Positions 40,859 through 59,193 of a DNA stretch of 64,000 bases are shown here, in pieces. The translations under genes were made by a program, and so were the position numbers. Source of the DNA: an uncultured Eubacteriales bacterium (GTDB lineage Bacteria > Bacillota > Clostridia > UBA1381 > UMGS1253); NCBI GenBank assembly GCA_902492065.1, contig CABUKE010000001.1, positions 257,347-321,346 of the forward strand, written 5' to 3'. The stretch's first letter is position 1. Every line of letters begins with the position of its first letter. The notes below the pieces were generated by a model. It was given only the letters and a program-made list of their open reading frames with translations, did not search any database and was not told where the DNA came from.

Positions 40859-40891
40859 AAAAATACACCAGAACTACAGAAGGGGGCTTAG

Positions 40892-41332: not shown

Positions 41333-41348
41333 TTTTAGGAGGTAGATT

Positions 41349-41861: not shown

Positions 41862-41864
41862 AAT

Positions 41865-41900
41865 AAAAAAGGAAATGTGCATTTGCACATTTCCTTTTTT
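41865..41900. terminator. bidirectional terminator (gerQ-like gene / convergent 159-aa gene)
   Basis: A perfect 17-bp stem: AAAAAAGGAAATGTGCA-TT-TGCACATTTCCTTTTTT. Confidence 0.85.
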
Positions 41901-42378
41901 ATATGTCCTCCAAGTCTGCGTCCAGTTCTGGTGAGGCTGATCCACTTCGAGCGGGAGCTTCGTTTGCATCCAGCAAAAGCCCGAACCGGATCAGAGTGAC
42001 CAATATGACAAGAAGTCCCATCAACACCTCGGTATCTGCCGCAAAGGTATCGCCGCCTGCCGCCTCTGTCTGTACTGCGATACCCTGCGCCTGTTTAGAA
42101 AATCCGATCAGGGCATAGAAAGTTAGGATAGACGCGACAACTTGCATGACAAAGGGGTCTGGGTATTCACCCGCGTCAAAATCCCCGGGAGAAAAAGCCT
42201 CCGCAAGCAGCAAGCCGCGCTGGGTTTGCAGCGTTTGGAAACGAAGTATGATTCCCACCAGAATAAATAGCAGATTATACTCCGCTTTATCAAGCAGCGC
42301 AAGCTGGGTGCGGATTTCCTCCGGAAGCTGGTCAAAATAATACGAGTCAAGTTGATTTTTACTTTTGATTCTATTCAC
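41899..42378 (-). CDS. hypothetical membrane protein
   Basis: The 159-aa ORF has about 3 hydrophobic helices and an acidic tail. It uses a GTG start crowded against a GGGGAGG sequence, so the start is uncertain. I recognise no family. Confidence 0.45.
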   Translation of the reverse strand: MNRIKSKNQLDSYYFDQLPEEIRTQLALLDKAEYNLLFILVGIILRFQTLQTQRGLLLAEAFSPGDFDAGEYPDPFVMQVVASILTFYALIGFSKQAQGIAVQTEAAGGDTFAADTEVLMGLLVILVTLIRFGLLLDANEAPARSGSASPELDADLEDI

Positions 42379-42515
42379 CTCCCCGGCATATCAAGTTTCT
42401 ATCATTTTATTATATGTTGTTTGTGGCTGTTTTGTTTCTGAGACGGCATAAGGCCATCTGTTTTTGAACTACAAATGCGGGCAAGTGAAAAAAGCAGGAA
42501 AAAGATGAAAAGCCC

Positions 42516-42544
42516 TTGAAAATTACAGATTTTTGTAGTAAAAT
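42516..42544 (+). promoter_or_regulatory. sigma-A type promoter upstream of the cobalamin riboswitch
   Basis: TTGAAA (42516-42521), a 17-nt spacer, then TAAAAT (42539-42544). Confidence 0.45.
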
Positions 42545-42599
42545 AACAATCTGAAAAATATATCATGAATTCGTACAATGTGTCGTATATTGCGTATGG

Positions 42600-42775
42600 C
42601 AATATATGGTGAAAAGGGAATCAGGTGAGAAACCTGAACGGTACTGCCGCTGTATGCGTCAAAGTTTTATGTTTGACGGTGAAAGCCGGTCACTGGGAAA
42701 CTGGGAAGGCAAAGCATAAAACGCAGAGTACGTAGCTCTATAAGGCGCAAGTCAGAAGACCTGCATTGATACTGC
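42600..42775 (+). promoter_or_regulatory. cobalamin (B12) riboswitch aptamer
   Basis: The conserved blocks occur in the canonical order. They are AAAAGGGAAUCAGGUGAGAAACCUGAACGGUACUGCCGCUGUA, then GGUCACUGGGAAACUGGGAAGGC, then the B12 box GCAAGUCAGAAGACCUGC. Confidence 0.9.
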
Positions 42776-42818
42776 ACCGTGTTTACCCGGCCCGGGTATA
42801 GGTGCGGTAGCTTTTTTG
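42771..42818 (+). terminator. riboswitch expression-platform terminator
   Basis: ACUGCACC-GUGUUU-ACCCGG-C-CCGGGU-AUA-GGUGCGGU followed by AGCUUUUUUG. Its 5' arm abuts the B12 box. Confidence 0.7.
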
Positions 42819-42850: not shown

Positions 42851-42890
42851 AGCTGTGGCGTAAGATAAATCTTATGCCGCAGCTTTTTTG
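42851..42890 (+). terminator. second terminator-like hairpin in the same leader
   Basis: GCUGUGGCGUAAGA-UAAA-UCUUAUGCCGCAGC (two G-U pairs) followed by UUUUUUG. It lies 77 nt before the giant ORF's ATG. Confidence 0.6.
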
Positions 42891-42966
42891 TTGGCAATAT
42901 GGGAGGCCGAGGCATGTAAGCAAATTTATAAACAAAAATTAAACTGTAAAAGGAAGGGTGAAACAT

Positions 42967-45900
42967 ATGCGTACAAATAAAACAAATCGTTTCTTTGCTT
43001 TGCTACTGACCGCCATGATGGTATTTAGCCTGCTTCCTGCCAATGCAGGCGCGGCCGTTCCTGACGATGTAGGACAATCGGAAAACGCGGGGCCGCAGGT
43101 TCAGGAGCCTGTGAATCAGGATGGAGTGTATCAAATATCCTCCGGCAGCGAGCTTGCGTGGATAGCGCAGGAGGTCAACGCGGGAAGGGCGGCGGATTGT
43201 AGCGCTGTGCTTACCGCGGACATCGACCTGGGCGGACAAAGCTGGATTCCAATTGGAAAAGGAAGCAGCTATGCCTGGAGGGGAAGCTTTGATGGACAAG
43301 GCCACACCATATCCGGACTGTATGTCGATTCAACAAACTATGACCAGGGGCTTTTCGGCTACATAAACGGAGGAACGGTTCAAAATATTACTGTAAAAGG
43401 GCAAGTGACGGGCGGCGGCAGCGGCAACAGCGGCGGCGTCGGCGGCATTGCCGGAACGCTGAACAGTTCATACAGCAGTGAAAGCGCTATCAGAAACTGT
43501 ATCAGTTATGTCACTGTGTCCGGCGGAAATAACGTCGGCGGCATTGTGGGACTGGTGACAGGCTCTTACGGCAAGACGATTGCATGCTGTGCAAACTATG
43601 GGACAGTTTCCGGCAATAACAGTGTCGGCGGTCTGGTTGGTAATTTTTATTACAAAGGCCAATTAACGGACAGCTATAACCGCGGCGACATTACGGCAAA
43701 CGTGAGCAAAGCGGGCGGCCTTGTCGGCTACATGAGCGACAGCGGCGCTTCCGTTTTCAACTGTTATACGACAGGGACTGTGCTCGGGACTAATTCTGCG
43801 CCTGCAATTGGACAGATGGAGCGCGGGACGGCAGAAAATGTATATTATCTTGACACCCTGGGCAGCGACGCCAACGCTGTTCCAAAACAGGAAGCGGAAA
43901 TGAAGGGTGCGGCATTCCCGGGCCTTTTGGGGGAAGCATTCTCACAGGATATGGCCATACCGATAAACGACGGTTATCCGATTTTTGCTTTTCAGGATAC
44001 TACGCCGAAGTATGATGTTACCGTTACGGTTTCTCCGGCGGATGCAAACTTTGCATTGTCCGATGATACCGGAGCGGCAATTGCTGGGGAAAAAGAAGAA
44101 CTTGAGCAGTCCGCCGTTTGGCGTTTCAGCCTGCGGGACGGGAGCTACCACTATACTGCATCTGCTTTTGGAAAGGTTGAGCAGAGTGGCGAGTTGACGG
44201 TGAGCGGACAGGCTGTTACCCAGGAGATCGCACTATTGGACGCTCCGGCAAAGGAAATAACATTTGACATCACCTTTGAAGACGGCAATCCCGATGGGGT
44301 AACGCCATCCATTATAGTGACGTACGACAAAGACGGCAGGGAAATTGCTGCGGCAGACGGGGTCTATACCCTGCCCTACGGCGATTATCATTATACGGTA
44401 AAGGCCAAAGGGTACAGCAAGATGGCGGGGGCATTTGCGGTTACTGCTGACAGTACTGCTATATCCGTATTGTTAACGCCGTCTGCCGCATGGGACGGCG
44501 AAAGCATGGAGCCGGTCGCGCCGAATGCGGAAGGTATTTATGAGATTGGCTCGGGTGAGGAGCTTGCCTGGTTTGCAGCGCAGGTAAACAGCGGGACAGG
44601 AAAAGAGTACCGCGTCCTGCTCACAGATGATATTGATTTGGGGGAAAACCCGTGGACGCCCATTGGAACGGGCCTTACCTATAATGTTGATTTCTTTAGC
44701 GGGAGCTTTGACGGAGCGGGCCATACGATTACCGGATTAAATGTTTCCGGCGCGGAATACGCCGGGTTGTTCGGCTATATCAAGGGGGCTTCACTTTCTC
44801 CGGCAGAGGTCAAAAACATTGTCGTACAGGGCAGCGTAAATGGAACCGAAAATGCAGGCGGCATTACAGGCCGCGCTGATAACGCGGTAATTGAAAACTG
44901 TGGCAATGAGGCTGCTGTGTCGGGCAAGGAAGCAGGCGGAATCGTCGGACGGCAGCATAGCTACGGTTCTCCCATTACCATAACAGGCTGCTACAACATT
45001 GGTGCTATAACGGCACAGTCCCGGGCCGGCGGTATTCTGGGCTATGTCAATGACACAGCAGAAATCAGCAATTGCTATAATACGGGCGCGATTGAAAGCA
45101 GCGATTATGCCGGCGGCCTCCGGGGGATGGGCGGCTCGTTTGCGGGCGACATTACAAACTGTTATAATGCTGCCGCTGTCAGTGGCAAGACTGCCGGCGC
45201 CCTTGTTGCAGGCAGCGGAAGCCTTGAAAACTGCTACTACTTAAGCGGCGGTGCGAGTGATACAAACGGCAGTACGGAAGTGTCCGCAGATGAGCTGAAA
45301 AACCTGGCGCAGCGGCTTAACGCAGGGGCTGTTCCCGCTTTGTGGGTAAGCGGCGGTACGCAAAACAACGGCTATCCTATCTTGGAGTGGCAAAAGGAAG
45401 AAGCTGGCGAAACAGGCATCCCGCTGAACAAAGTGACAAATGCTGTTTGGCAAACGGATTTGGAAACCGGCCTGCTCACCGGCGTGGCTACATGGGATGC
45501 TGTGCCAAATGCGGAAAGCTATACGGTTATCCTTTGGGATTACTGGGCGGAAGAAACCGAATACGGGTCAGTAAGTGGTATGTCGGCGCGTAAAACGGTT
45601 ACTGGTGTTACAGAAACCCAATACGACTTTACACAGGATATTGAAGAGAATGGGGCAAGCTGGTATTACTTTACTGTGACGCCCATTGCGGAGGAAAACA
45701 GTGGGTACATCAGCGGTGAGCTACCCATATGGGATGAAGAAACACAGGAGGGCAACCTCTACGATTATTTGGACTATTCCAATGACGATATTTGTTACCG
45801 CTACTATGAGCAACTCGACCAGCCGACCGGACTCAGTTGGTCAGGTCCGTTTGCCCGGTGGGAGTTTGTGGACGGCGCGGCAGGTTATCTTGTCACGATC

Positions 45901-48900
45901 TATCGGTTAGATGATACAAATGCCATCTATTATACGGCAAGCAGCCTTGCAGATGCGGCCACAAACCAGGTCGACTGTCAGAACTATTTCGCGGTTGGAG
46001 GCCGCTATGTATTCACAGTGACAGCCCTTTCGGAGGAATATCTGCTCACAGGTGTGGGGGACAAAAACAGTCCGGCATCCCGCCTCAGCAGCGACGAGAG
46101 TAATGGCGGCGCGGAATACGGTATTTACACAGCCGTTTCTGTTCCGGATCCGGAGCCTGGCGACGAGGTGGACCGGACGGACTGGATTGCCATTTCTACA
46201 GCAGAACAGTGGGTGGAATTGGCCAATGTAGAGGATATCCCCGTCGGAGATGGCGACAACAGCAGTCAACAGAGCGTTGCATGGGGAAAGAAATACTATT
46301 TAACGGCAGACCTTGATTTTTCCAGCCTTTCATCGGCTGACCAAGTCCGTACCAAGTCGATTGGCAACACAACCAACCGCTTTACCGGTATCATGGACGG
46401 AAACGGGCACAAAATTACCGGTCTTACGCTCAGCAACAATGATTCGGGATTGTTTGCCTATATCGGCGCTGCGGGGCAAGTGTACGACCTTACCATTGAA
46501 GATGCGAACGTCCTGTTTTCCGACAATGCGGCGGTGCTGGCGCTTTATAATTATGGAACCATCCGCGACTGCGCCGTTATCAATTGCAATATCACGGCCG
46601 ATACCGGGGCCGTGCTGGGCGGTATGGTGAGCCGTAACTACGGCGTTGTACGCGAGAGCTTTGTACAGGGGGGAACGCTGACTTCAAACAGTAGCACGGC
46701 CACAGGCCACGCTGGATTTGTCGGGTCAAATGAATCCGGCGGCCTGATTGAACGCTGCTGGACTTCCATGGATGTACATACCAGCAGCGAGTACGCGGGT
46801 GGCTTTGTGGGCTTGGGCTATGGCGGCACAATCCGGGACTGCTTTGCTTTGGGAGATGTTTCGGCGCGGAGCTATTCCGGCGGTTTTGCGGGACGCTCCG
46901 TCTATGACGGGAACCGTTATGAAAACTGCTATGCGGCTGGCACGGTCGCCGTATCCGGAGAGGTGGGGCATGGTTTTATTGGCGGCAGCAGTCCGGACTC
47001 CGCTTTTCAGCCCGATTTATCAAAGGAAATTAAGAATTGTTATTACAACAGCGCATCGCCGGCCGACGGCTATGCAGCCGGGAAGAGCCTGGAGGAGATG
47101 CGCAGCGCGGCATTTTTGACCGCACTTGGCGGTACGCAGGGCGTTTGGACACAGTCGCCGGACAAAAACAATGGCCTCCCATATTTGACCGACGTTCCGG
47201 CACCGGAGGGAACGCCGGTGGAAAGCATTACCGTTGAGATTGCGCTGGCAGTTTATGATAAGGAGACTTACACCTTCTCGCAGCTGGGAGAAACGGTATC
47301 GGTAACATTGGAAAGTAACGGCAACACGCGGATAACCGATTTGATGGATGCGGCGGCCTCCCAGGGGAAACTGACGTATACCTATGAAACGACGCCCTCG
47401 TTCGGACGCTATATCCACACCATCAATGGATATGCGGTGGAGGAGCCGGACGGCTGGATGTTTACCGTTAACGATAAACTTTCCAATTTGAGCGCATCTC
47501 TCGCTACGGTTCAGGACGGAGACCGTCTGCTGTGGTTTGAAGGAACAACGGAGAACCATTTCCAGGGTCCGGCATGGGACGAGCTTACAGGCGTTGAAGT
47601 CGAATGGGTGGATATTGGGACGGCAGAGGAGCTGTTACGGCTCGCGCAGAGCGCCGCTCCTGCGGATATGGAAAAGAATTACCGCCTTACAGCGGATATC
47701 GACTTAAACGGCGTTGATTTCAGCGGCATAGGGACTGATGCGCAGCCATTTGCCGGCATGTTTGACGGCCAGGGGCATACAATTTCCAACTTGTCCATGT
47801 CGGGCGGCGACAATGTTGGTTTCTTTGGCGTCATCAAAGGCGCGGTTGTTAAAAATTTGAATCTGGAAAACGCTGTTGTAAATGGCAGCGGCAAGAATAT
47901 AGGCACACTGGTAGGTTGGGCGCAGGTGGAACTGGATCAGGAAAATATAGCAGAAAATTTGGCAAACCTGATCGGCAATTGCACCGTGTCCGGGACAGTG
48001 TCGGGCACAAACACCGTAGGAGGGCTTGTCGGCCTTAACGACGGAAAAGAGGACCCGGACACGCTGTTTTCCATTGCGTCTTCTATTGATAAGTGTACAG
48101 CGGATGTAGAAGTGCTCGGCACGGGCAAGGGCGGCAACGTCGGCGGCCTGGTTGGTGAGAACAACGGCGTTATCACAAAGAGTGTGGCTGTGGGCGATGT
48201 AAAGGCAGAGGGCGCTTACGGCGTGGGCGGCTTTGCTGGGGAATCCTACGGAGACATTTATGACAGCCATGCAGACGGTGACGTTACCGGGCAGAGCACG
48301 GTCGGCGGTTTTGCCGGAGCCTCGAGTGGAATTCTGAAAAATAGTTACAGCTTGGGAAGTGTTATGGGCGAGTCCTATACGGGCGGTTTTGCCGGCTCCA
48401 TCAGCATGGCAGAGTATGTAATTGGAGCAGGGCAGGTAACAGTTACCGGAAGCAGCACGACCGGCTACAATGGCGGCTTTGCAGGACATATGAGCGGATG
48501 GATTACCGGCCCTGAAAACCAGATTGCAATCAAAGACGCTTTTGCAAATTGTACCCAGACAGACGGTTCCCTGATCGGGATTATCGGGAATACGGTGGAT
48601 TATGCCTCGGAGGAACAGCAATCCGTGTTGTTGGATATGACACTGAAAACAGTCGGAGAAACAGCCGATAAGCTGTATGAGATGTTTGGCGTAAATATGA
48701 AAGTTTCCGAGAGTTTGATGGCGGAAGCGGAAAAATACGCAGACAGTTTGGCTTCTTCACAGAGCGGGGGAGAGATTTCGCTTTTAAAGGAGAACCAGAC
48801 CGCTTCGGAAGGGATTTCCGTCAGCTATGAAGTGTCGGGCGACTATCTGACCGGCGGAAGCAGCTTGACAATAGCAAAGGCAAACGATACTTCAGCGACC

Positions 48901-51036
48901 TTGTCCGTTCCGGTGACAATTGTTCTTAGCGATACGGAAAGCGGAACCGTTTACCGCAAGGAGGCGCAGGTACTGCTGTCTGTAACACCCGCACAGCGCG
49001 AGAAACTGATGGACAGCATAGCGGGCGGATACACGGAAAGCAAGGATAGCTGGAGCGTCATGGATATGGCCGTTTACGAGACCATTGACGGAAAGACCTA
49101 TAGTGTGACGGATGCGGCGAAGCAAAACGTCTTGAATTTGCTGATTGGTGAAGCGGACAGCGAAACGGCGACAGTAAGCGACCGTGCGAGGATTGAGATT
49201 GTTCTCAGGGCTATGGGAATTGACAGCAGCAGGCTGTATCCTGTTAACAGCAACGACGCAATCAATAATGCAGAAATTTTGTCGGAGATGGACCTTACAT
49301 CAGGCGGATATTACGCCGCACCGTGGCTGCTGCTGGCCGATATGCAGGGCAATCTGTCCCTTTCGGAAGAACAAATCCAGACGCTTATTGTGATGCTGTA
49401 TGACAACATGGGAGACGGACTGTTCGGCTATACTTATGGCGGCGTCAGCTATTCCGACCCCGATACGGCAGGCGTAGCTTTGGCGGCGCTGGCGCGCTTT
49501 ACAGAAACGGATGAGCATGCAAAAGCTGTTGTAGATAAAATCCTGTCCGCTCTGCCAGATGCCATGAACAACACAGGCTCCTTTGGAAGCGTAAACTCCG
49601 ATGCAATGGTTCTCATTGGTTTGCTCGCCAATGGGATAGAACCGGCAAGCATAAAAGTTGAGTCGGGCGCGACGATTGTAGACGGCATGCTCTCCTATGT
49701 AAATGTTGACACGAACAAATTCCAATTTAGCGGAGTGGATAACGACCTTGCTACGGAGCAGGGCTTCCGGGCGTTGATTGCGTTAAGTAAAGCAAATGGA
49801 ACGGCATACAACATTTATGATTTCAGCGGCAATGCGGTAACGCCGGGGCGGGCGACCGGGGACGGGGAAACGGAAGTCCCAGATGAACCAAGCCCAGGCA
49901 ACCCCGACATTACTGTGAGCGTTACCATTAAAGCGGATAAAGGCTATTGGCTGCGGGATAAATCGGTTCGTGTAAAACGTGGTTCCACCGTATACCATGC
50001 CTTTATTAAGGCGCTTGAGGGCAGCGGTATTACGCAGGTGGGTGCAGAGGACGGCTATGTAAAGTCCATGAGCAAAGATGGGAAAACACTGGCGGAGTTT
50101 TCCGACGGACCGCAGTCCGGCTGGTTGTATCAAGTAAACGATGTTCTTCCGGACGTTGGGCTGACCGCGTACCAGATTAAAAACGGCGATGCAATTGAGT
50201 TTTACTATACGGCGGATTGGACGTCGGAGCCGGGCATTGGCGGCGGAGACAATGCCAGCAGCACGAAATATACCGTTACCTTTGACACACAGGGCGGCAG
50301 TCTGATTGATAAAGTTACTGTGTCTAAAAACGGCACTGTAACAAAACCAGCTGACCCGACAAAAGAAGGGTATACATTTGGCGGCTGGTTTACGGATAAA
50401 GGCTGCACACTTGCGTATGACTTTTCATCTAAAGTTACGAAGAATCTTACTTTATATGCAAAATGGGAAAAAACATCAGAGGAACCGGACAAGCTTCCCT
50501 TTGAAGATGTAGACGAGACCGACTGGTTCTACGAAGCGGTAAAGTATGCCTATGAAAACGGACTGTTTAATGGAACAGACGACACCACGTTTGCTCCTGA
50601 CGAGCAGATGACGCGTGCCATGTTGGTTGCTGTGCTCTACCGCATAGAGGGTGAACCCGCGGCCGGACAGGAAAACAGCTTTCAAGATGTAGCCGCAGAC
50701 GCATATTATGCCGGTGCGGCGGCATGGGCAAACGAAAATGGGATTGTGCTCGGCTACGGCGAAAATACATTTGGCCCGGATGATTTCATTTCGCGGGAAC
50801 AGCTTGCGGCGATATTGCAGCGGTATACAGCGTATAAAAATGTTACAGTAGAGGAAACAGGTGATTTGTCGCAGTTTGTGGACGCGGGTGAGATTTCGCC
50901 CTGGGCACAGGACAGCATAGAATGGGCTGTTGGGGCGGAACTTTTGTCCGGAAAGGACGGGGGAAGGCTCGACCCGCAAGGCGGCACTACCCGTGCAGAA
51001 GTTGCGACAATCCTACAGAGATTTTTAGAAAAGTAA
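42967..51036 (+). CDS. giant (2,689 aa) SLH-anchored cell-surface protein with four GLUG-repeat blocks, Ig/FN3-like spacers, two DUF4430 (transcobalamin-like beta) domains, an alpha/alpha-toroid domain, a Listeria-Bacteroides repeat and three SLH domains
   Basis: The signal peptide is MRTNKTNRFFALLLTAMMVFSLLPANAGA. GLUG-type repeats are present (GLFGYI.G.V.N..V.G.V.G....GGI.G). DUF4430-like segments lie at ~47218-47550 and ~49906-50225, and a helical toroid at ~48975-49830. YTVTFDTQGGSLID...GYTFGGWFTD...LYAKW lies at ~50266-50470. The three SLH domains are FEDVDETDWFYEAVKYAYENGLFNG, FQDVAADAYYAGAAAWANENGIVLG and FVDAGEISPWAQDSIEWAVGAELLSG. I preferred the ATG at 42967 (AGGAAGGG RBS 8 nt upstream) over the GTG at 42958. 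Confidence 0.9.
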   Translation: MRTNKTNRFFALLLTAMMVFSLLPANAGAAVPDDVGQSENAGPQVQEPVNQDGVYQISSGSELAWIAQEVNAGRAADCSAVLTADIDLGGQSWIPIGKGSSYAWRGSFDGQGHTISGLYVDSTNYDQGLFGYINGGTVQNITVKGQVTGGGSGNSGGVGGIAGTLNSSYSSESAIRNCISYVTVSGGNNVGGIVGLVTGSYGKTIACCANYGTVSGNNSVGGLVGNFYYKGQLTDSYNRGDITANVSKAGGLVGYMSDSGASVFNCYTTGTVLGTNSAPAIGQMERGTAENVYYLDTLGSDANAVPKQEAEMKGAAFPGLLGEAFSQDMAIPINDGYPIFAFQDTTPKYDVTVTVSPADANFALSDDTGAAIAGEKEELEQSAVWRFSLRDGSYHYTASAFGKVEQSGELTVSGQAVTQEIALLDAPAKEITFDITFEDGNPDGVTPSIIVTYDKDGREIAAADGVYTLPYGDYHYTVKAKGYSKMAGAFAVTADSTAISVLLTPSAAWDGESMEPVAPNAEGIYEIGSGEELAWFAAQVNSGTGKEYRVLLTDDIDLGENPWTPIGTGLTYNVDFFSGSFDGAGHTITGLNVSGAEYAGLFGYIKGASLSPAEVKNIVVQGSVNGTENAGGITGRADNAVIENCGNEAAVSGKEAGGIVGRQHSYGSPITITGCYNIGAITAQSRAGGILGYVNDTAEISNCYNTGAIESSDYAGGLRGMGGSFAGDITNCYNAAAVSGKTAGALVAGSGSLENCYYLSGGASDTNGSTEVSADELKNLAQRLNAGAVPALWVSGGTQNNGYPILEWQKEEAGETGIPLNKVTNAVWQTDLETGLLTGVATWDAVPNAESYTVILWDYWAEETEYGSVSGMSARKTVTGVTETQYDFTQDIEENGASWYYFTVTPIAEENSGYISGELPIWDEETQEGNLYDYLDYSNDDICYRYYEQLDQPTGLSWSGPFARWEFVDGAAGYLVTIYRLDDTNAIYYTASSLADAATNQVDCQNYFAVGGRYVFTVTALSEEYLLTGVGDKNSPASRLSSDESNGGAEYGIYTAVSVPDPEPGDEVDRTDWIAISTAEQWVELANVEDIPVGDGDNSSQQSVAWGKKYYLTADLDFSSLSSADQVRTKSIGNTTNRFTGIMDGNGHKITGLTLSNNDSGLFAYIGAAGQVYDLTIEDANVLFSDNAAVLALYNYGTIRDCAVINCNITADTGAVLGGMVSRNYGVVRESFVQGGTLTSNSSTATGHAGFVGSNESGGLIERCWTSMDVHTSSEYAGGFVGLGYGGTIRDCFALGDVSARSYSGGFAGRSVYDGNRYENCYAAGTVAVSGEVGHGFIGGSSPDSAFQPDLSKEIKNCYYNSASPADGYAAGKSLEEMRSAAFLTALGGTQGVWTQSPDKNNGLPYLTDVPAPEGTPVESITVEIALAVYDKETYTFSQLGETVSVTLESNGNTRITDLMDAAASQGKLTYTYETTPSFGRYIHTINGYAVEEPDGWMFTVNDKLSNLSASLATVQDGDRLLWFEGTTENHFQGPAWDELTGVEVEWVDIGTAEELLRLAQSAAPADMEKNYRLTADIDLNGVDFSGIGTDAQPFAGMFDGQGHTISNLSMSGGDNVGFFGVIKGAVVKNLNLENAVVNGSGKNIGTLVGWAQVELDQENIAENLANLIGNCTVSGTVSGTNTVGGLVGLNDGKEDPDTLFSIASSIDKCTADVEVLGTGKGGNVGGLVGENNGVITKSVAVGDVKAEGAYGVGGFAGESYGDIYDSHADGDVTGQSTVGGFAGASSGILKNSYSLGSVMGESYTGGFAGSISMAEYVIGAGQVTVTGSSTTGYNGGFAGHMSGWITGPENQIAIKDAFANCTQTDGSLIGIIGNTVDYASEEQQSVLLDMTLKTVGETADKLYEMFGVNMKVSESLMAEAEKYADSLASSQSGGEISLLKENQTASEGISVSYEVSGDYLTGGSSLTIAKANDTSATLSVPVTIVLSDTESGTVYRKEAQVLLSVTPAQREKLMDSIAGGYTESKDSWSVMDMAVYETIDGKTYSVTDAAKQNVLNLLIGEADSETATVSDRARIEIVLRAMGIDSSRLYPVNSNDAINNAEILSEMDLTSGGYYAAPWLLLADMQGNLSLSEEQIQTLIVMLYDNMGDGLFGYTYGGVSYSDPDTAGVALAALARFTETDEHAKAVVDKILSALPDAMNNTGSFGSVNSDAMVLIGLLANGIEPASIKVESGATIVDGMLSYVNVDTNKFQFSGVDNDLATEQGFRALIALSKANGTAYNIYDFSGNAVTPGRATGDGETEVPDEPSPGNPDITVSVTIKADKGYWLRDKSVRVKRGSTVYHAFIKALEGSGITQVGAEDGYVKSMSKDGKTLAEFSDGPQSGWLYQVNDVLPDVGLTAYQIKNGDAIEFYYTADWTSEPGIGGGDNASSTKYTVTFDTQGGSLIDKVTVSKNGTVTKPADPTKEGYTFGGWFTDKGCTLAYDFSSKVTKNLTLYAKWEKTSEEPDKLPFEDVDETDWFYEAVKYAYENGLFNGTDDTTFAPDEQMTRAMLVAVLYRIEGEPAAGQENSFQDVAADAYYAGAAAWANENGIVLGYGENTFGPDDFISREQLAAILQRYTAYKNVTVEETGDLSQFVDAGEISPWAQDSIEWAVGAELLSGKDGGRLDPQGGTTRAEVATILQRFLEK
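50266..51033 (+). repeat. C-terminal anchoring cassette (Listeria-Bacteroides repeat plus 3 SLH), copy A of an inverted diverged pair
   Basis: It is paralogous to 51469-52266 on the opposite strand. In the repeat domain, 46 of 66 residues are identical in my by-eye alignment. The SLH part is roughly half identical. Confidence 0.75.
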
Positions 51037-51465: not shown

Positions 51466-54400
51466 CTATTTCAAATTTTCAAAAAACCGTTGCAGCATTG
51501 CTGCCATTTCCGCACGCGTCGCATTGCCCTGTGGATCGAGCTGACTATTCTCCTTGCCGGAAAGCAGCCCATATCCAACCGCCCACGACACGTTCTCTTT
51601 TGCCCAATCGGAAATCTGTGCTTCATCAGCAAATTTTGTCAAATCGCCGCGTGCACTTGTGTCAATGCTCTTATAGTTTGCGTACCGCTCCAGAATTGCG
51701 GCAATTTCTTCTCGTGTAATCGTCTGATCCGGTGCAAACTCAGTATCTGAGTACCCCTTCACGATACCCTCGCTTGCTGCCCAACGGACAGCCTCTCCAT
51801 AATATGCTGCTTGGTCAACATCGTCAAACATCATGAGATAGTTTACGACTGGCTTTTCTTCTGCACGCCAGAGTACCGTCACCAGCATCCCGCGGGAGAG
51901 TGTTCCATCCGGCGCAAACTCCGTTTCGCTTACGCCGCTGAAAAGTCCGTTTTCTGTTGCATATTTCACTGCATCATAGAACCATGCTTGCTCGGAAACG
52001 TCGCTGTACGGGTTCTTCCAGTCGTCTGGGTCAACCGGTTCCTCTGGGATAGTAGGTTCTATGCTCCACTTTGCATACAGCGTGATGTCCGACGTTACTT
52101 TTGTATCAAAATCGTATGCCGTTTTGCACGCCGCATCTGTAAACCAACCTTCAAAAGTATACCCCGCCCGGGTCGGCGCAGCCGGCTTGGGAACCACACC
52201 GTTTTTAATCACGCGGACACTGCCGATTTTGCTTCCGCCCTGCGTATCAAAGGTTACGGTATAGCGTGTCGCTACAGTTTCGCCACCGCCAGACGACGGA
52301 CGGTATACCGTTACGGTGATATCCGCTGCCTCTACCGGAGCGTAATTGGAATCCGCCGGCGTAAAGACAGCCATTTCCTTATAGAACCCTTCTTCTGCCA
52401 TCTCGCGGTCATTCTTCCAAGACCATGTGCCTGCCAACTCTGTCCCGTCGAGGCCCGTCACAACGCCGCCGGAAAGGGTGGACGCAGAGAGCTGTTCGCC
52501 GACTTGGATGCGGCTTGCTTTCGGCGCTGTTACAAGGGTCGCCGTCGCAGAGGTGACAGCATATGCGACTTCATTTGACCGAACAATTTCATAGCTTTCC
52601 GTACCTGCAAATACTGCCTCAAAGGTGTAGTCTGCTACTTCCGGCGCATTCAGCGTCAGTGTAGCCACGCCGCCCGCAGTGTCGGCCGTGCCGAGCAGCA
52701 CCGGCGTTTCGCCTGCATTATTATAGAACTGTATTGTGTTACCGTTTGGACTGCTTACACCCTCAAGCGTAGCTGTCAGCGTTACATCAGCGCCATATAC
52801 GGACGTTTCTGCTGGAGAAGCTGCAAGCGTGATGGTTTGTAACCGGCTGAGAATCATCTGTTTCTGGCCGTCTGCTGTATCAATTTCTTTTACTTCAAAG
52901 TTTCCGCTGTTGTTGATAAAGTTACTTGCCGCCGCCTTGCCACTTGCGTAAGGAGCGGTAAACGCCTGTCCAAACGTAAAATTACGGCTGTTGATATAGA
53001 TACCGATTTTTGCCGTTTCGTCAAGGCCGTTTTCACCGATTGTCAGCGTGTTTCCGTTCAGCGTATCTATCCAGAGGTCACAGTCGCCGTCCATTCCGGT
53101 ATTTCCGGTAATGACAGCAGTTCCGGAAACCTCGACAAAGCTGCCGTTAGCCGCGTCGACGCCTGCCTGCGGATTGTCAGAGGTGTTACCGGTGATGGAG
53201 CCACCGTTCATGATAAACTTAGCGTTGCGCATGAGTTTTACACCACCGGGGCTGGTGCCGCCGTGATTTTTTGTAATTGTGCCGCCATTCATAATAAAGG
53301 TGCCGCCGCCCATGACCTGAACGGCGCTGCGGCTGCCGTCACTCTGGTGTCCGGTAACGGTGCCGGTCTTTGCGGCGCTGCTGTCCTCAAGCTGTAAAGT
53401 CGCGCTGTCATTGATATACAAGAAGGTGTCGTTGGTCTGGGAGGCTGTCAGCGTATAGCCCGCCAGATCGAACACGAGCGTTTTTTCGCTCGGTACGCTA
53501 AGGGAGGTATCAAGCTGTGCGTCGCCCAGCAGTCTGGCATAAACAGGCTCCGCACTGCTGCCGATTGCAGTCCGTAAATCGGCAAATGTACCGGAATTGC
53601 CGTATGCTTCACCATCTGTTCCCCATTCAACAACATTGCTTATCTGGGCATGGAAATATTTGGTCTGTGCCGCAAGGCCCGCAGTTTCCGAACTGTAATA
53701 CGCAATTGCAGCCGATACCGCATCATCTCCTGATGCTACCTTATAAAGCTTACCCGCAGCGGGAGATACAGTGAATCCCTGTCTGCCAAATGCCGCCGCT
53801 GAAACAATTTCTACGTCGGCCTGATTGCTGATGAGAACGGGCAGTGTGCAGTAAATACCGTTGGTCGTTGCACCCTGTACGTTCACCTTTGCCTCATCCT
53901 GAATGGTCAGCCCTACATTGCTCTGTGCAAAAATACCATATGCACCATTTGTTGCAATATTAACCTGCGCCTGCTCTTTCAAGATGATATTGTCTTTTTT
54001 GCACCAGATACCGCCGCCGTTTGTATCATGAATCCGAATGACTGCATTTCCACCAATGCTGATACCGGACGCAGAATTATAAATTGCATAGTTTTCCAGT
54101 CCGGAAATATCCACTTCTGCGTTTCCGTCGATCACCATATTCGCAAGGCCGTAAGGATAAAGTCCGTACTTTCCCTTTGTAATGGTTACCTTCGCGTTAT
54201 CCCCGATTACAATGCCGTTCGTATCCTTGTGCTCGCCGGTATTGTTACCGCTCATGATGGCCGTTTGTTCTTTACCAGCAGCTGCAGTTACTTGAGCATT
54301 CTCTTTAATTGTAATTAGTCCGCAATTATTAATGGCATTATGCTGTTCGCTTGTTGCTTTAACGACTGCATTGCCCTGGACGGTAAGATTCGTACCGTTT

Positions 54401-57400
54401 TCCGCATGTATTGCAGCGTTGAGCCCGGTATTGGAAACATTGAGCTCGCCGCCGTCTTCGCTTGTAATCGTCAGGCTTTCGTTGTAATACCGGAGAGCAT
54501 GACCATACTGGTATTCACCTCTCAGCGTGGAAGTCCCCTTCAGTCGGAGCGTACAAGGGGCATATGTGTCTGCTTCCTGACTTTTTGTAATCAGGATCGC
54601 CTGCCACTTTTCAGTTGTATGGATATTGACGTTGTCAAGCGTTATGTCCGCCGTGCCTTTGTCTGTCAAAATCCGAATGGTACTGTCGGTAGCGGCGCCT
54701 TCCTGCCTCATGGAAACCGTTACTGGCGTCGTCGTGTTAATAGTCAGTTCTTTCTCTGCCTCGGAATAGGAGTAGTCCGTACCCCCTGCGCCACCGGTCA
54801 CGATAAATGGTCCCATTGCTGACGGCCCCGCGGTTATAGTCGCGTCGTCGCCCATGCTTTCGATAAATGCATTTGCCGCCGCGTCTGCCTCTTCGGTTGT
54901 CGCGAAGCTCCATTCATTAGAGCCATACAGTTTGGTGTCGTCAACCAATGTATTGTCTAAAACGGTAAGCGAGGTGTTTGAGTCGCTTCCGAGCGCAATG
55001 CCGTTATACAGGCATACCGCCATGTAAGCGTCAACGGTGTTCCCCTGGAACGATACCGCGCCGTTGATATGGCCTACAAGCTGCAGGGCAACCTCTTTTT
55101 GCAGATGCTTCTGCAAATCGGTGTTGTGGTTTTGCCCGTCGCCTTCATAGGCCGCCTCCTGATTCAGCGTAAAGGTGTTGTTATCTACGTTGATATCAGC
55201 CTGCCCGCTGCGCGTTTCAACATGTACGCCGCGGTAGCCGGTCACCGTGTTGCCGTCAAAGACAAAATCGAGCGTGCCGTCCACTTTGTACCATACAGCA
55301 TACGCATTGTGCGAATAGAATCCGTCCGGATTGCCCTTAAAATCAAACACGTTGTCGATAAACGATACCGACGCCGCTGTGGGATACCCCGACTGCGAGC
55401 CGTTAAAGGTACAATTCTGCATGGTAACGCTGCCGCCGTTCGAGTCAAACAGCAAATCGTTGGCAAACGTCAGCCCGTCTACAACCAGCGACGCACCTGC
55501 CGGCAGCTTGATGTTGAGAACCGGGCAGTAAACCGGCCCGTCAATACCGTTTCCGTCAATGCCGCTCGTAATGCCTGCACCGTCTGTGGACGAAGTAATC
55601 GTCAAGGAGGTCAGCTCCGAGCCGGACAGGTCAAAGTATTTGCTGTAGCTGCTGGATACGGTACCATTTTCTTCGAGCATATATGCAATATTCACATCGC
55701 CCAGCAGGCTAACCGTTACGTCGCCGGACAGCTCGCCCGCCGCTGCAACTGCGCCTTCCAGACACGCATATTTTGTTTCGCCAATCTGTGCGACCCAATC
55801 CGTGCCGTTTTGTACAACTGCAAATACATCACCGGCGGAATTGTTATTATATGCATACTGGTCGGTGCAATTGCCGCTGATATTTTCGATTGCTGTCTGC
55901 GAAACATTGTTCTTTACTGTAATCTCCTGTGCATCGTAGAAGAGATTCGACTTCTCACTTTGCAAATTGCCGACAACGCCTGCGGCAAACGTGCCACCCG
56001 TAACCGAAGAAGCCGTGTTCGTGTTCCCGGTTACGATACCTGCGTTGTAAATGGTTCCTGCAATACCGCCGAAACCAAGCGTGCTGCCGCCGGCAGAAGT
56101 ACAGAGGATGTTGCCCGCGTTGGTGTTGTTCTTCACTGTGATGATTGCCGACTTTGCATAGCTTGCGCTGTTTTGATAGCGTACCCAACCGACAATACCG
56201 CCCGCGTTCGAACCGCCGTTGATTGCAGCCGTGTTTTCGTTATCCGAAATCGTGCCGTAATTCGTCTGTTCGCCGACGATGCCGCCCGCTGAGTTTCCAG
56301 CCGTGATGACGCCGCTGTTGGTGCAGCCGGAAATGTCTGCGGCGGAGAAGCCCGCGATGCCTGCGGCATGATAACTGCCCGAGGTAATTGGGCCGTCGTT
56401 TACACAATTCGTAATCCGCATATCCTTGCCGTCCGCCGTGTAGTACGCCTTGCTGACAATACCGCCCGCTACACCGGTGGAAGTGTGAACCGTGGCATGG
56501 TTGATGCAGTTTTTAATCTCGCCTTCCAAAACGATACGTCCGGCAACGCCGCCGCCGTCCGCCATTGCAACCGTGCCGGATACCGTGCAGCCGTCAAGAG
56601 TTGCATCTTGCAGCATACCGGCTACTGCGCCGGTCAGTTCATTGGCCGGAAGATTGATTGCAACATTGCTGAGCGTAAGATTTTTCACAACGCCGCCGTT
56701 TGCAACAATACCGAACAGGCCCGCCGCACTGTCGGCATTTGCGTTTGCAGGATTGCTTTCCGTGATGGTCAGATTTGCAATCGTCTGCCCGTTGCCGTCA
56801 AATACGCCGTTAAACGATGCGCCGGTGTATCCGCTGCCGTCGCGCGCACCATTGCCGATTGCTGTCCAGTCCTCAGCGGACAGGTCATACGAACCTTCTG
56901 CAAGCTGGATATACATGCCCGCATAGGTTACACCCTTATTGACGCTGTCGCGGAAGCCCTTCAGCCCATCGACGTTTGCAATGATGTATGGGTCAGCTTC
57001 TGTGCCTGTACCACCGGCAAAAAAGCTGTCGTCCAGTTCTACTTCATATTTTCCGTCCTCATTTGGTACCAAATCCATTCCAGGCGCAAGGTAACTGTTG
57101 TCTGAAATTGCAGTATCGGTAAAGGTACCGCCGGAGATAAAGCCCGTCTTGTCCTCGCTGTATACAGTGCCTTCAAAGCTGCCGCCCTGTACGGCAACCT
57201 GCACATCGTCAATCGATTCCTGCGGGTTCTTCTGCGGATTTGACTCGTACAGAGCCGCGCCGCCCTTCAAAGTGCTGTTTCCACTGATTGTAACTTCAAT
57301 CGGCAGCTTTGTTGTATGCTGTGCAATCGAAATTGCAGCGTTCACGGTTGTTGAGCCGCTCCCGTTCGGGTCGGAAACGACCTCGCCGCTGCCGCCTATG

Positions 57401-59193
57401 AGTGTGCTGTCAATAATATCGAGTTTTCCAGCGCGGATTTCAATCGCTGTTCCGCGGTCGACAGAACAATCAATCGTCGAGTTCCGCACTGTAGTTTCTG
57501 CATATCCAGCCAGATACATCCCCGTCGGAGTTGTTACCGGGCCGGTGCTCTCGGTGCGCAAGGTTGCACCGTCGAGCAGTATTTTCGGAACATTCCCCGT
57601 GCTGACGGTGTTTTGCCCGTTGATATAGAGCGAGTGGCCCGACCAGTCGGAACTATCCTTCATGGATACAAGCGTGCCATATACATCGGCACGGATACCA
57701 TAGCTTAAAGGCTGGTTTTGTTCGTTAGTTGCATAACTGATAAACAGCCCTGTCCAGCCTTTCAGCGTAATGTCTTCTCCTACTGTCACAACGCTGTAAT
57801 CTGCAACGTCCTCCGCCGAGCCGAACATTACAACTGGGCCATAAAGCGGCGATTCCTCATAAGCCGTGCCTGTCCCGGTCAGGTGCAGCGTCCCGTGCTG
57901 AATCTGGAATCGGCACGACTCTAAAAAGCCAACGCTGTGTCCGTTAAAGTCCACGGTAATCTCCCTGCCGTCTGTGAGAGGGATATTAGCGCAGTTTGTA
58001 ATATCGTCAAGCAGCTTAATTGTTTGCTTGTCCTTTGCCGCCGTAAATGCTTTTGGCAAGGACGCAAACGGCGTGCCATTTACTTCTGCAACGGGAGAGG
58101 AACCGTTGAAAATCGTCGTTCCCTCCTCGTCCGATACCGTAGCTCCGGTATTGGTTCCGGTTGTGCAGAGATTGTCCACCGTAGCAGGCGGCGCAATGTC
58201 GCCGCGAAGAGTGCCCGTGACATATCCCATTTTTGCATATTCTGCGATGTCGCTGCTGCATGCCAGCGTAATGCTGTCGACATAACAATCTTCCAGCACG
58301 CCGCCTTCGCCGCCGTTATTGTTGGTATATGTGCCGACAATGCCGCCGAGGCCCATGCTGCTGGCGTTCTGCGCTGCATAGTCGGCTGTGGCTGTGCTTG
58401 TCACTTGGGCACTGGATACGGAACAGTCTGTGATTTCGTTGTTGTTAAAGGCGGAACCAATCAGGCCGCCCACTTTACGGGTACCGCTTACGGAAAGATT
58501 TTTTACCGAGCAGCCAACCGTGGAAATTCCAGCGCCTTCCCCGCGAAAACCAATTAATCCGCCTATATTATCGCCCTCGAGGTCGGCTTCTTTATAAATG
58601 CCTGTCACCGTACTGCCGCTGTTTCCAATCACGGAGCAGTCTATCAAATCGGCATAGCCGCTGCCTGCAAGTCCACCAATCATATAGTGGCCCTCAATGG
58701 AGATATCTCCCTTTACGGTACAGTTTGTCACTGTGCCGGTAAAGGCACTGCCTACCAGCGCGCCTGCGTAACTTTCTGCTTTCACAGAAGCGTTCTCAAG
58801 CGTGAGATTTTGGATTGTTCCCGTTTTCGCTATGTAGCCAAACAAACCTGCTCCGGAAAGGGTTTCATCCTCGATAAACAGGTTTTTGACGGTTTTGCTC
58901 TGACCGTCAAACGTACCGGCAAACGCCGCAGAAGAAGCCAGGTCGCCAATCGGCGTCCATGCTTCGTTTTGCAGGTTGACGTCTGCGCCCAAAAGTATTG
59001 TTTTCCCAGCAAAGTCGTTCCCACCTGCTACAAGCTGGGCCAGCCCCATCAGCTCGGCTGCACTGTCCAACGTAAAGGATGAATCCTGTCCGTTGTACCA
59101 GCCTGTGTCCGGTTCGGCCGCGGATACCGCCGCCGGCAGCAGGGCGCAGACCATGCTAAGGGCTAAAAATAGTGCTAACAAGCGCCTTTTCAT
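51466..59193 (-). CDS. giant (2,575 aa) SLH-anchored cell-surface protein with GLUG blocks, long parallel beta-helix-like repeats, Ig-like domains, a Listeria-Bacteroides repeat and three SLH domains
   Basis: The signal peptide is MKRRLLALFLALSMVCALLPAAVSAAEP. An AAGGAG RBS lies 9 nt upstream. GLUG-type blocks are present (GLFGYIAKTGTIQNLTLENASV..., GLFGIVANGGVVKNLTLSNVAI...). G/N/T-rich beta-helix repeats are present (GGTFIMNGGTITKNHGG...FIMNGGSITGNTS...). Ig-like segments follow, then the shared C-terminal cassette. Confidence 0.9.
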   Translation of the reverse strand: MKRRLLALFLALSMVCALLPAAVSAAEPDTGWYNGQDSSFTLDSAAELMGLAQLVAGGNDFAGKTILLGADVNLQNEAWTPIGDLASSAAFAGTFDGQSKTVKNLFIEDETLSGAGLFGYIAKTGTIQNLTLENASVKAESYAGALVGSAFTGTVTNCTVKGDISIEGHYMIGGLAGSGYADLIDCSVIGNSGSTVTGIYKEADLEGDNIGGLIGFRGEGAGISTVGCSVKNLSVSGTRKVGGLIGSAFNNNEITDCSVSSAQVTSTATADYAAQNASSMGLGGIVGTYTNNNGGEGGVLEDCYVDSITLACSSDIAEYAKMGYVTGTLRGDIAPPATVDNLCTTGTNTGATVSDEEGTTIFNGSSPVAEVNGTPFASLPKAFTAAKDKQTIKLLDDITNCANIPLTDGREITVDFNGHSVGFLESCRFQIQHGTLHLTGTGTAYEESPLYGPVVMFGSAEDVADYSVVTVGEDITLKGWTGLFISYATNEQNQPLSYGIRADVYGTLVSMKDSSDWSGHSLYINGQNTVSTGNVPKILLDGATLRTESTGPVTTPTGMYLAGYAETTVRNSTIDCSVDRGTAIEIRAGKLDIIDSTLIGGSGEVVSDPNGSGSTTVNAAISIAQHTTKLPIEVTISGNSTLKGGAALYESNPQKNPQESIDDVQVAVQGGSFEGTVYSEDKTGFISGGTFTDTAISDNSYLAPGMDLVPNEDGKYEVELDDSFFAGGTGTEADPYIIANVDGLKGFRDSVNKGVTYAGMYIQLAEGSYDLSAEDWTAIGNGARDGSGYTGASFNGVFDGNGQTIANLTITESNPANANADSAAGLFGIVANGGVVKNLTLSNVAINLPANELTGAVAGMLQDATLDGCTVSGTVAMADGGGVAGRIVLEGEIKNCINHATVHTSTGVAGGIVSKAYYTADGKDMRITNCVNDGPITSGSYHAAGIAGFSAADISGCTNSGVITAGNSAGGIVGEQTNYGTISDNENTAAINGGSNAGGIVGWVRYQNSASYAKSAIITVKNNTNAGNILCTSAGGSTLGFGGIAGTIYNAGIVTGNTNTASSVTGGTFAAGVVGNLQSEKSNLFYDAQEITVKNNVSQTAIENISGNCTDQYAYNNNSAGDVFAVVQNGTDWVAQIGETKYACLEGAVAAAGELSGDVTVSLLGDVNIAYMLEENGTVSSSYSKYFDLSGSELTSLTITSSTDGAGITSGIDGNGIDGPVYCPVLNIKLPAGASLVVDGLTFANDLLFDSNGGSVTMQNCTFNGSQSGYPTAASVSFIDNVFDFKGNPDGFYSHNAYAVWYKVDGTLDFVFDGNTVTGYRGVHVETRSGQADINVDNNTFTLNQEAAYEGDGQNHNTDLQKHLQKEVALQLVGHINGAVSFQGNTVDAYMAVCLYNGIALGSDSNTSLTVLDNTLVDDTKLYGSNEWSFATTEEADAAANAFIESMGDDATITAGPSAMGPFIVTGGAGGTDYSYSEAEKELTINTTTPVTVSMRQEGAATDSTIRILTDKGTADITLDNVNIHTTEKWQAILITKSQEADTYAPCTLRLKGTSTLRGEYQYGHALRYYNESLTITSEDGGELNVSNTGLNAAIHAENGTNLTVQGNAVVKATSEQHNAINNCGLITIKENAQVTAAAGKEQTAIMSGNNTGEHKDTNGIVIGDNAKVTITKGKYGLYPYGLANMVIDGNAEVDISGLENYAIYNSASGISIGGNAVIRIHDTNGGGIWCKKDNIILKEQAQVNIATNGAYGIFAQSNVGLTIQDEAKVNVQGATTNGIYCTLPVLISNQADVEIVSAAAFGRQGFTVSPAAGKLYKVASGDDAVSAAIAYYSSETAGLAAQTKYFHAQISNVVEWGTDGEAYGNSGTFADLRTAIGSSAEPVYARLLGDAQLDTSLSVPSEKTLVFDLAGYTLTASQTNDTFLYINDSATLQLEDSSAAKTGTVTGHQSDGSRSAVQVMGGGTFIMNGGTITKNHGGTSPGGVKLMRNAKFIMNGGSITGNTSDNPQAGVDAANGSFVEVSGTAVITGNTGMDGDCDLWIDTLNGNTLTIGENGLDETAKIGIYINSRNFTFGQAFTAPYASGKAAASNFINNSGNFEVKEIDTADGQKQMILSRLQTITLAASPAETSVYGADVTLTATLEGVSSPNGNTIQFYNNAGETPVLLGTADTAGGVATLTLNAPEVADYTFEAVFAGTESYEIVRSNEVAYAVTSATATLVTAPKASRIQVGEQLSASTLSGGVVTGLDGTELAGTWSWKNDREMAEEGFYKEMAVFTPADSNYAPVEAADITVTVYRPSSGGGETVATRYTVTFDTQGGSKIGSVRVIKNGVVPKPAAPTRAGYTFEGWFTDAACKTAYDFDTKVTSDITLYAKWSIEPTIPEEPVDPDDWKNPYSDVSEQAWFYDAVKYATENGLFSGVSETEFAPDGTLSRGMLVTVLWRAEEKPVVNYLMMFDDVDQAAYYGEAVRWAASEGIVKGYSDTEFAPDQTITREEIAAILERYANYKSIDTSARGDLTKFADEAQISDWAKENVSWAVGYGLLSGKENSQLDPQGNATRAEMAAMLQRFFENLK
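51469..52266 (-). repeat. C-terminal anchoring cassette, copy B (inverted relative to 50266-51033)
   Basis: YTVTFDTQGGSKIGSVRVIKNGVVPKPAAPTRAGYTFEGWFTDAACKTAYDFDTKVTSDITLYAKW plus three SLH domains (YSDVSEQAWFYDAVKYATENGLFSG, FDDVDQAAYYGEAVRWAASEGIVKG, FADEAQISDWAKENVSWAVGYGLLSG). Confidence 0.75.

Follow-up and report, generated by a model that had tools for sequence, protein, structure and literature searches.

The SLBB superfamily, with its transcobalamin-like clade, was defined by Burroughs, Balaji, Iyer and Aravind (Biol Direct 2:4, 2007; PMC1796856). Bacterial transcobalamin-like members are often fused to an alpha/alpha toroid, placed N-terminally in Desulfotomaculum, and they are secreted or surface proteins of low-GC Gram-positive organisms, sometimes large and multidomain (PMC1796856). 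Their operons include CbiO, CbiQ and paralogous SLBB proteins, their hosts are usually without B12 synthesis, and a role in B12 scavenging was predicted for them (PMC1796856). We have analysed a giant surface protein of this kind, encoded in a stretch of 64,000 nucleotides from an uncultured Eubacteriales bacterium (contig CABUKE010000001.1, positions 257,347 to 321,346 of the forward strand), which we call the window. The protein carries a module in which a toroid is followed by a DUF4430/SLBB domain, an arrangement shared with the Desulfotomaculum example, and like the proteins described in 2007 it has a signal peptide and a predicted surface location. We consider it probable that the protein serves to capture corrinoids at the cell surface, being made when B12 is limiting and feeding an importer encoded elsewhere.

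A term search of the 2007 paper (PMC1796856) found cobalamin riboswitches, SLH anchoring and GLUG fusions unmentioned, and the paper contains neither a structure model of a bacterial toroid nor giants of 2200-3700 aa. Among eukaryotic proteins, transcobalamin (TC), intrinsic factor (IF) and haptocorrin (HC) (PF01122 + PF14478; PDB 2bb5, 4zrp, 2pmv, 4kki) have an order of toroid, linker and beta-grasp domain like that of the window module, and the TC beta domain belongs to the same Pfam family as DUF4430 (PMC4350170). The Lsa1836-1840 operon of L. sakei has the same parts list as the energy-coupling factor (ECF) operons that are headed by short relatives of the module (see below). In contrast to L. 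sakei, the window protein has its alpha and beta parts fused in one SLH-anchored chain, with no adjoining transporter, and unlike the soluble carriers of the TC type, of 45 kDa, its module is wall-anchored within 2692 aa and is riboswitch-controlled. BtuG is a beta-propeller, and BtuG and BtuH are Gram-negative outer-membrane lipoproteins that work with the TonB-dependent BtuB. Both are reportedly surface B12-capture lipoproteins of Bacteroides, BtuG according to Wexler and colleagues in 2018 and BtuH according to Putnam and colleagues in 2022. Their folds are unrelated to that of the window protein, and the analogy is functional only, as riboswitch-regulated surface capture of corrinoids ahead of a transporter in gut commensals.

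The module is contained in a single open reading frame (ORF) on the + strand, 42958-51036, of 2692 codons from a GTG (ORF list and translation). It comprises an alpha/alpha toroid at 48988-49830 (+; aa 2011-2291), an interdomain linker of ~25 aa rich in Pro, Gly and Glu at 49831-49905 (+), and the second DUF4430/SLBB beta-grasp domain of the giant at 49906-50211 (+; aa 2317-2418). The original prediction, made from the sequence, had divided this region into a toroid of helical repeats and a beta segment, and the peptides that it quoted (GGYYAAPWLLLADMQG, GLFGYTYGGVSYSDPDTAGVALAALARF, TGSFGSVNSDAMVLIGLLANG, DNDLATEQGFRALIAL, ITVSVTIKADKG..., SGWLYQVND and NGDAIEFYYT) are all in frame 1 of the ORF. 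Its domain limits hold to within a few codons; the start that it gave, 48975, is one base off frame, the codon beginning at 48976.

The assignment of the beta segment to DUF4430 proved correct. PF14478 matched the module alone over aa 2340-2416 (46.5 bits, cut-off 23.8, E 5e-12), a signal well beyond chance, and the whole giant in two stretches (79.3 bits, the best at aa 2342-2418). The domain carries the motifs SGWLY-x-VN and GD-x-I-x-(F/W)-YY and is the counterpart of the TC beta domain. The most conserved motifs of the toroid are W-x3-DM-x2-Y, YxAPW, DPDT, GSFG-x-NSDA, ATEQGFRAL and YNIYDF, the last forming a conserved strand with which the toroid closes at ~nt 49830. Single conserved residues of the module include W2032, D2036, Y2040, D2169, T2170, N2213, E2267, Q2268, R2271, Y2287, W2331, Y2367, S2387, W2389, Y2391 and N2394. 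The identity of the helical domain as a toroid follows from its fold and from transitive homology, a direct Pfam match being absent. The family profile matches the squalene-hopene cyclase (SHC) structure 1gsz at E 4.5e-4, over SHC residues 357-419. A toroid-only profile of 82 family members matches, at E 5.6e-34, a separate 357-aa toroid protein encoded beside the Evtepia homologue (locus L005; related loci compared with the window carry labels of this form), and this protein passes the Pfam cut-offs for both SQHop_cyclase_C (34.4 vs 26.1) and Prenyltrans (27.1 vs 26.5). With the 12 helices of the structural model described below, these matches agree with the alpha/alpha toroid of the original prediction.

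Homologues of aa 2005-2426 were collected and aligned as input to AlphaFold2. The resulting model of the module has a mean predicted local distance difference test score (pLDDT) of 93.5 and a predicted template modelling score (pTM) of 0.76. It contains 12 helices at aa 2011-2278 (nt 48988-49791; model residues 7-274), which are predicted to form an alpha6/alpha6 toroid. The linker is modelled with pLDDT 76-81 and one short strand, otherwise without regular secondary structure, and leads to a predicted beta-grasp domain at model residues 313-414 with extra strands after its helix. DSSP gives for this domain two strands, a helix at 341-349, short strands at 355-357, 366-369 and 372-375, and further strands at 384-389 and 408-414. 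The post-helix strands of the model fit the hairpin insert that marks the transcobalamin-like clade of SLBB domains (Burroughs 2007).

The model was compared with the PDB using Foldseek. The 15 top matches are all TC (human, rat or bovine), HC or IF, and span both domains over 439-464 columns with E 2.8e-11 to 5.4e-8 and probability 1.00, at sequence identities of 11-16%. Next come the isolated TC beta domain 5np4 (target TM score, TMt, 0.75) and the DUF4430 structure 3u7z (TMt 0.65). The domain order of TC that had been claimed from the sequence is thus recovered at the level of the fold, over both domains together. The original prediction had also proposed a comparison with BtuG and BtuH, and no entry so named is among the 50 best Foldseek matches listed. 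The best explanation of the predicted structure is that the segment is a bacterial homologue of the TC, IF and HC fold, its toroid and SLBB domain being connected by a flexible linker.

Profile comparison gave a weak similarity. Using hhalign in local mode, with a human TC query 100% identical to PDB 7qbf_A, the family profile aligned with TC collinearly over both domains (module 32-414 with TC 33-407; E 1.4e-4 to 8.9e-5; identity 20%). The alignment pairs the conserved YSDPDTAGVALAAL of the module with HHSVDTAAMAGL of TC, and GD-x-IEFYY with DGETIELRL.

Toroids of this general kind are also found in enzymes, and the module might be an extracellular terpenoid cyclase, prenyltransferase, lyase or hydratase, or a thioester domain like that of alpha2-macroglobulin, with DUF4430 as an accessory binder. 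Foldseek does list linalool dehydratase, SHC, MstE, GH88 and alpha2-macroglobulin, at E 4e-3 or worse (4e-3 to 2e-2), and the family profile match to SHC falls around the repeat in which SHC carries DxDDT(A); the conserved DPDT of the module appears from the alignment to sit where SHC has DxDDT. However, these structural matches are ~8 orders of magnitude weaker than those to the B12 carriers and cover the toroid only. A motif scan found no DxDD, DDxxD or HExxH anywhere in the 2692-aa giant, and there is no cysteine within aa 1866-2482, so that a CGEQ thioester is not possible. These absences disfavour a role as cyclase, prenyl synthase, protease or thioester protein. The protein is moreover exported, and prenyl-diphosphate substrates are not expected outside the cell; control by a riboswitch would be left without explanation. 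We have therefore rejected the thioester reading for want of a cysteine, and the enzyme reading on the missing catalytic motifs together with a fold ranking that favours B12 carriers; an enzymatic or thioester function for this toroid is very improbable.

The signals around the gene indicate a surface protein whose synthesis probably responds to B12. The true start of the giant is likely to be the ATG at 42967, behind the ribosome-binding site AGGAAGGG, and since the next downstream gene is convergent the giant is monocistronic. Its N-terminal signal peptide is MRTNKTNRFFALLLTAMMVFSLLPANAGA, with a hydrophobic stretch ending ANA-GA and with no lipobox Cys. At the other end are three SLH domains, a non-covalent wall anchor (50497-51033, +; aa 2514-2692; PF00395 116.8 bits in 3 stretches), a region that is also matched to the Sap and SbsB SLH structures by the family profile. 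The giant therefore has both features of an SLH-anchored surface protein, a Sec signal peptide and three tandem SLH domains, and the S-layer-type anchoring that had been proposed is borne out.

Rfam detects exactly one element over the 64 kb, a cobalamin riboswitch aptamer (RF00174) at 42561-42782 on the + strand, scoring 75 bits (gathering score 31.5; E 1.2e-16) with the model complete from 1 to 189. It ends 176 nt before the ORF start at 42958, and 185 nt before the likely ATG at 42967, with no significant ORF between aptamer and giant start. Just 5′ of the aptamer a consensus scan finds a sigma-70-like promoter, TTGAAA-17-TAAAAT, at 42516-42544 (+), a pattern match only, with 10/12 positions. 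Between aptamer and gene lies a strong intrinsic terminator at 42851-42884 (+), found by a terminator scan and evident in the sequence as a 15-bp stem, a 4-nt loop and a T-run. This terminator is likely to be the expression platform of an OFF switch, and the giant is most likely switched off by the riboswitch when B12 is plentiful. The riboswitch control that the original prediction had assumed thus has its elements directly upstream of the gene.

Riboswitches accompany the module in most of its family. An nhmmer model was made from six Rfam-defined aptamers and scored on those loci with at least 250 nt of upstream sequence (n=61). In 48 of these the module gene is preceded, on the same strand, by a cobalamin-riboswitch-like element. 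All of the nhmmer-positive loci that were re-tested (31/31) reach the Rfam gathering score. The Rfam-verified loci total 37 including the window, among them the orthologous giants L007, L019, L024 and L040. Two further leaders fall below the threshold of 31.5 bits, those of the closest orthologue L009 (23.6 bits, 533-762) and of the Evtepia locus L005 (20.9 bits, 7751-7879); these may be divergent variants of the aptamer. The orthologous-giant loci L017 and L020 have no gathering-level Rfam match, and nhmmer finds an element in them at E 3.5e-16 and 5e-4, respectively.

The module is widespread. When one genome per species was scanned for the motif [AS]TEQ[GA]FRAL, relatives were found in 193 species genomes, and the best 80 of the 193 are nearly all gut or rumen Clostridia (Oscillospiraceae, Eubacteriales, Peptococcaceae, Neglectibacter caecimuris, Senimuribacter and Evtepia). 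Searching 1.84 billion cluster representatives with phmmer gave 249 proteins at E<=1e-30 and 1348 at E<=1e-10. Among these representatives the module-bearing proteins are 488-3494 aa long, and module identity is 35-77% across hundreds of proteins. The module is always near the C-terminus, usually followed by SLH domains, and is to judge from these sequences a mobile conserved unit. The closest relatives of the window protein are 57-63% identical, no genome exceeding 63%, and all are giants of 2200-3700 aa. The L009 giant is collinear with it over aa 48-2691 at 57.8% identity. Because the closest relatives are collinear over nearly the full length, the giant represents an orthologous family and not an assembly artefact.

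The shortest members reveal a link to transport. The forms below 900 aa consist of a signal peptide, toroid, SLBB domain and SLH domains, and are encoded by the first gene of a conserved ECF operon. The remaining genes of this operon encode EcfT/CbiQ, two ABC ATPases fused to an ECF S-component, a small DUF4430 protein that begins with a membrane helix and, optionally, a second exported toroid protein. They directly follow the module gene in 7/8 short, 10/36 medium and 1/11 giant forms. Different forms can coexist, as in one metagenome-assembled genome (MAG) in which one copy (L043) is linked to an ECF operon and another (L044) stands alone, and in a second MAG with the giant L009 and a 1434-aa form (L052). 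Giants in L018, L019, L020, L031 and L041 match the second toroid protein of the ECF operon at E 1e-66 to 1e-94; these five apparently absorbed the second toroid into the same polypeptide, as judged by sequence, and the giant of the window did not. SLH-anchored toroid-SLBB contigs also occur in MAGs labelled Sutterella (L063), Alloprevotella (L071) and Absicoccus (L010), and are probably mis-binned contigs of Clostridia.

These observations can be assembled into a mechanism. At high intracellular adenosylcobalamin the aptamer would be bound, the terminator at 42851-42884 would form and the giant would not be made, and when B12 is scarce transcription would read through into the gene. The 2692-aa product would be exported via its Sec signal peptide and held in the wall by its three C-terminal SLH domains. 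There the wall-proximal toroid and SLBB domain could close around a corrinoid as in TC, concentrating a scarce compound at the cell surface, and the corrinoid would be handed to an importer elsewhere in the genome, likely to be of the ECF type seen after the short forms in other Clostridia. We infer corrinoid binding and its hand-off from the homology of sequence and fold and from the regulatory and operon links of the family. When expressed separately, the alpha and beta domains of TC come together on cobalamin, which the beta domain can also bind by itself (PMC5599065). The ECF operons, with alpha and beta parts in separate genes, offer a parallel, and the observation supports a role in corrinoid capture.

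A number of results weigh against such a role. There is no ECF, Btu or other corrinoid-transporter gene in the 64-kb window, whose sole ABC ATPase (62384-63403) resembles MetN and has a NIL domain. This accords, however, with the transporter encoded elsewhere that had been predicted, given that in the family short homologues head ECF operons and giants are usually unlinked. The check on toroid families that had been suggested failed: Pfam gives no match of PF01122, PF00432, PF13243 or PF13249 to the helical domain at E<=0.1, nor is there an NCBIfam match to the helical stretch at that threshold. Searching the module against PDB sequences with phmmer gave nothing meaningful, and no TC match was obtained by phmmer or hmmsearch. 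The hhalign probability for TC is low, at 53-60%. In this low-confidence alignment the module reads YSDPDT, with no His, opposite the TC loop that supplies the Co-coordinating His. Superposition of the unliganded model on holo-TC gives a whole-chain TM score of 0.35-0.47 and a root mean square deviation of ~20 Å; in the model the toroid and the SLBB domain each resemble the corresponding TC domain, while their predicted relative pose is unlike that of holo-TC. Lastly, in the literature searched we found no experimental work on B12 binding by such proteins and no B12-binding data for any bacterial member. What was found is confined to the analysis of 2007 and a preprint on L. sakei, and the latter, on the sole experimentally studied operon of this type (Lsa1836-1840), interprets it as a heme importer (bioRxiv 10.1101/864751).

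The L. sakei study raises the alternative that the module binds another tetrapyrrole such as heme, as suggested for Lsa1839/Lsa1840, which are split proteins of the transcobalamin type. The operon for which heme uptake is reported is built in a like manner, with alpha- and beta-like exported proteins, EcfT, ATPases and an S component. Yet a cobalamin-specific riboswitch precedes the window gene and most of the family, and all the closest solved structures are cobalamin carriers. We therefore regard heme or a similar ligand as quite improbable, and continue to favour capture of a corrinoid.

The greater part of the giant lies N-terminal to the module. Pfam finds on the giant at least 5 stretches of Glug, two of DUF4430/PF14478, one of Flg_new and three of SLH. 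Self-BLAST of the giant detected no internal repeats at 1e-5, and the four paralogous modules of ~300 aa that carry the Glug motif were set instead by alignment and hidden Markov model (HMM). All are on the + strand: module 1 at 43108-44001 (four-module HMM, E 1.6e-114, and Pfam Glug; its fold follows by homology to the module 2 model), module 2, the modelled copy, at 44518-45402 (AlphaFold2 and Foldseek), and modules 3 and 4 at 46177-47187 and 47590-48537 (Pfam, alignment and HMM). Between modules 3 and 4 is the first DUF4430/SLBB domain at 47335-47535 (+; Pfam stretch aa 1460-1526, in full ~aa 1424-1530; PF14478 41.6 bits vs 23.8), which has no adjoining toroid. By phmmer it matches the small DUF4430 proteins of the ECF operons, and it may offer another site at which a corrinoid is bound or handed on. 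A Listeria-Bacteroides repeat (Flg_new) at 50269-50463 (+; aa 2438-2502; PF09479 79.7 bits) lies between the toroid-SLBB module and the SLH domains. The toroid-SLBB module is thus proximal to the wall, and the GLUG modules are distal.

By sequence the GLUG modules had no matches in the PDB. Module 2 was modelled with an alignment of the window's own four copies, giving a right-handed beta-helix with pLDDT 80.2 and pTM 0.82. Its best Foldseek match is 3n6z, the 'putative IgA1 protease' BACOVA_03286 (E 1.5e-8; query TM score, TMq, 0.75), and the matches next in order are IgA1 proteases of streptococci and Gemella. The N-terminal GLUG domain of IgA1 proteases (3n6z, 6xjb, 7uvk) thus has its fold and the Pfam Glug motif in common with the four modules, whereas, unlike those proteases, the giant is without a metalloprotease HExxH domain.

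In the family, 54 of 81 ORFs have, according to the four-module HMM, at least one GLUG beta-helix N-terminal to the toroid-SLBB module. The mean GLUG count increases with protein length, from 0 below 900 aa to ~0.6 at 900-1300 aa and 1.7 at 1300-2000 aa, reaching 4.3 in the giants, which have 3-5 each. A separate GLUG gene of 440-490 aa stands between riboswitch and module gene in at least eight loci, where the riboswitch lies 1.35-1.75 kb 5′ of the module gene; its secreted product has no Pfam match at 1e-3. These eight loci are L073 (gene 5293-6693), L077, L084, L069, L081, L066, L058 and L049.

The window also encodes a neighbouring, convergent giant, an SLH-anchored protein of 2575 aa at 51466-59193 (-) with Big_3_5, Flg_new and three SLH domains. 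The HMM finds two GLUG-type modules in it, Pfam one Glug stretch. It has no DUF4430/SLBB domain, and no riboswitch by Rfam. Since GLUG modules thus occur in a giant that has neither a riboswitch nor SLBB, they may be a generic surface building block. The distal beta-helices and wall-proximal B12-type module of the riboswitch-controlled giant would in turn disfavour a simple stalk that projects the binder outward.

A different account of the giants is that they hoard corrinoid, deny it to competitors or strip it from host or dietary carriers using the GLUG modules, with no dedicated hand-off. Giants almost never adjoin a transporter (1/11), the window protein has two SLBB domains and, distally, four beta-helix modules like those of IgA1 proteases, and in at least eight loci separate GLUG genes share the riboswitch with the module gene. 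Bacteroides BtuG, for its part, can take B12 from intrinsic factor. Against this, repression by a B12 riboswitch is the usual mark of acquisition genes, the closest short homologues head ECF importer operons, and the GLUG modules of the neighbouring giant may indicate a generic element. We consider hoarding or stripping of corrinoid unlikely. It is nonetheless the likeliest of the alternatives to corrinoid capture for import, followed by binding of another tetrapyrrole and then by the enzyme or thioester toroid.

A bolder proposal is that the GLUG modules are dedicated partners of the toroid-SLBB module, the giant being a 'piracy' device induced by B12 starvation. It draws on the frequency of fusion (54/81), on the scaling of GLUG count with length, on the separate GLUG genes within the riboswitch unit and on the distal placement of the beta-helices. 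If it were true, the beta-helices would dock on host or dietary B12 carriers (HC, IF) or on B12-producing cells, and the two SLBB sites would receive the released corrinoid, making the giant a Gram-positive counterpart of BtuG derived from an ancestor of the host's own carrier. No GLUG-cobalamin link was found in the literature searched. We think this proposal unlikely.

The remainder of the window belongs to a chromosome of spore-forming Clostridia, as deduced from Spo0A at 20279-21220. At 3544-14849 is a nitrogen-assimilation cluster that comprises an ANTAR response regulator, glutamine synthetase, a GXGXG protein, a glutamate-synthase domain protein, type III glutamine synthetase and an ammonium transporter fused to P-II. 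Cu_amine_oxidN1 domains, a wall-associated type named 'copper amine oxidase N-terminal', occur in three secreted proteins encoded at 25666-29131 (-) and 38844-40775 (+), in company with polysaccharide deacetylase/F5_F8 type C or GH26 domains. At 36709-38847 is the gene for a GH36 alpha-galactosidase. The 1.7 kb (40800-42500) that separate the GH26 gene from the riboswitch have short overlapping ORFs only. Pfam gave no match for the three minus-strand ORFs tested in this interval, and 40892-41332 (+) has, by eye, the appearance of a SleB-type cell-wall hydrolase.

Overall the interpretation given in the original prediction is supported, and it rediscovers the published prediction of Burroughs et al. 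2007 (PMC1796856). The core idea was already known, and nothing in it is mechanistically surprising. Three aspects were not found in the literature searched, namely that riboswitch control is nearly universal, that the proteins are anchored by SLH domains, and that they are systematically fused to GLUG modules, up to conserved giants of 3000 aa. The 2007 prediction is now directly testable, because the cultured Neglectibacter caecimuris (M00184, L024) carries an orthologous giant; Senimuribacter DSM 106208 (L015) is another cultured carrier.

Competition for corrinoids among Gram-positive gut anaerobes is far less understood than the BtuG/BtuB system of Bacteroides, and this family provides a concrete and widespread candidate for it. 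The unexplained tie to beta-helices like those of IgA1 proteases might indicate that corrinoid capture involves a step not described before. Binding of B12, if shown, would bear on the proposed acquisition of transcobalamin by animals from Firmicutes.

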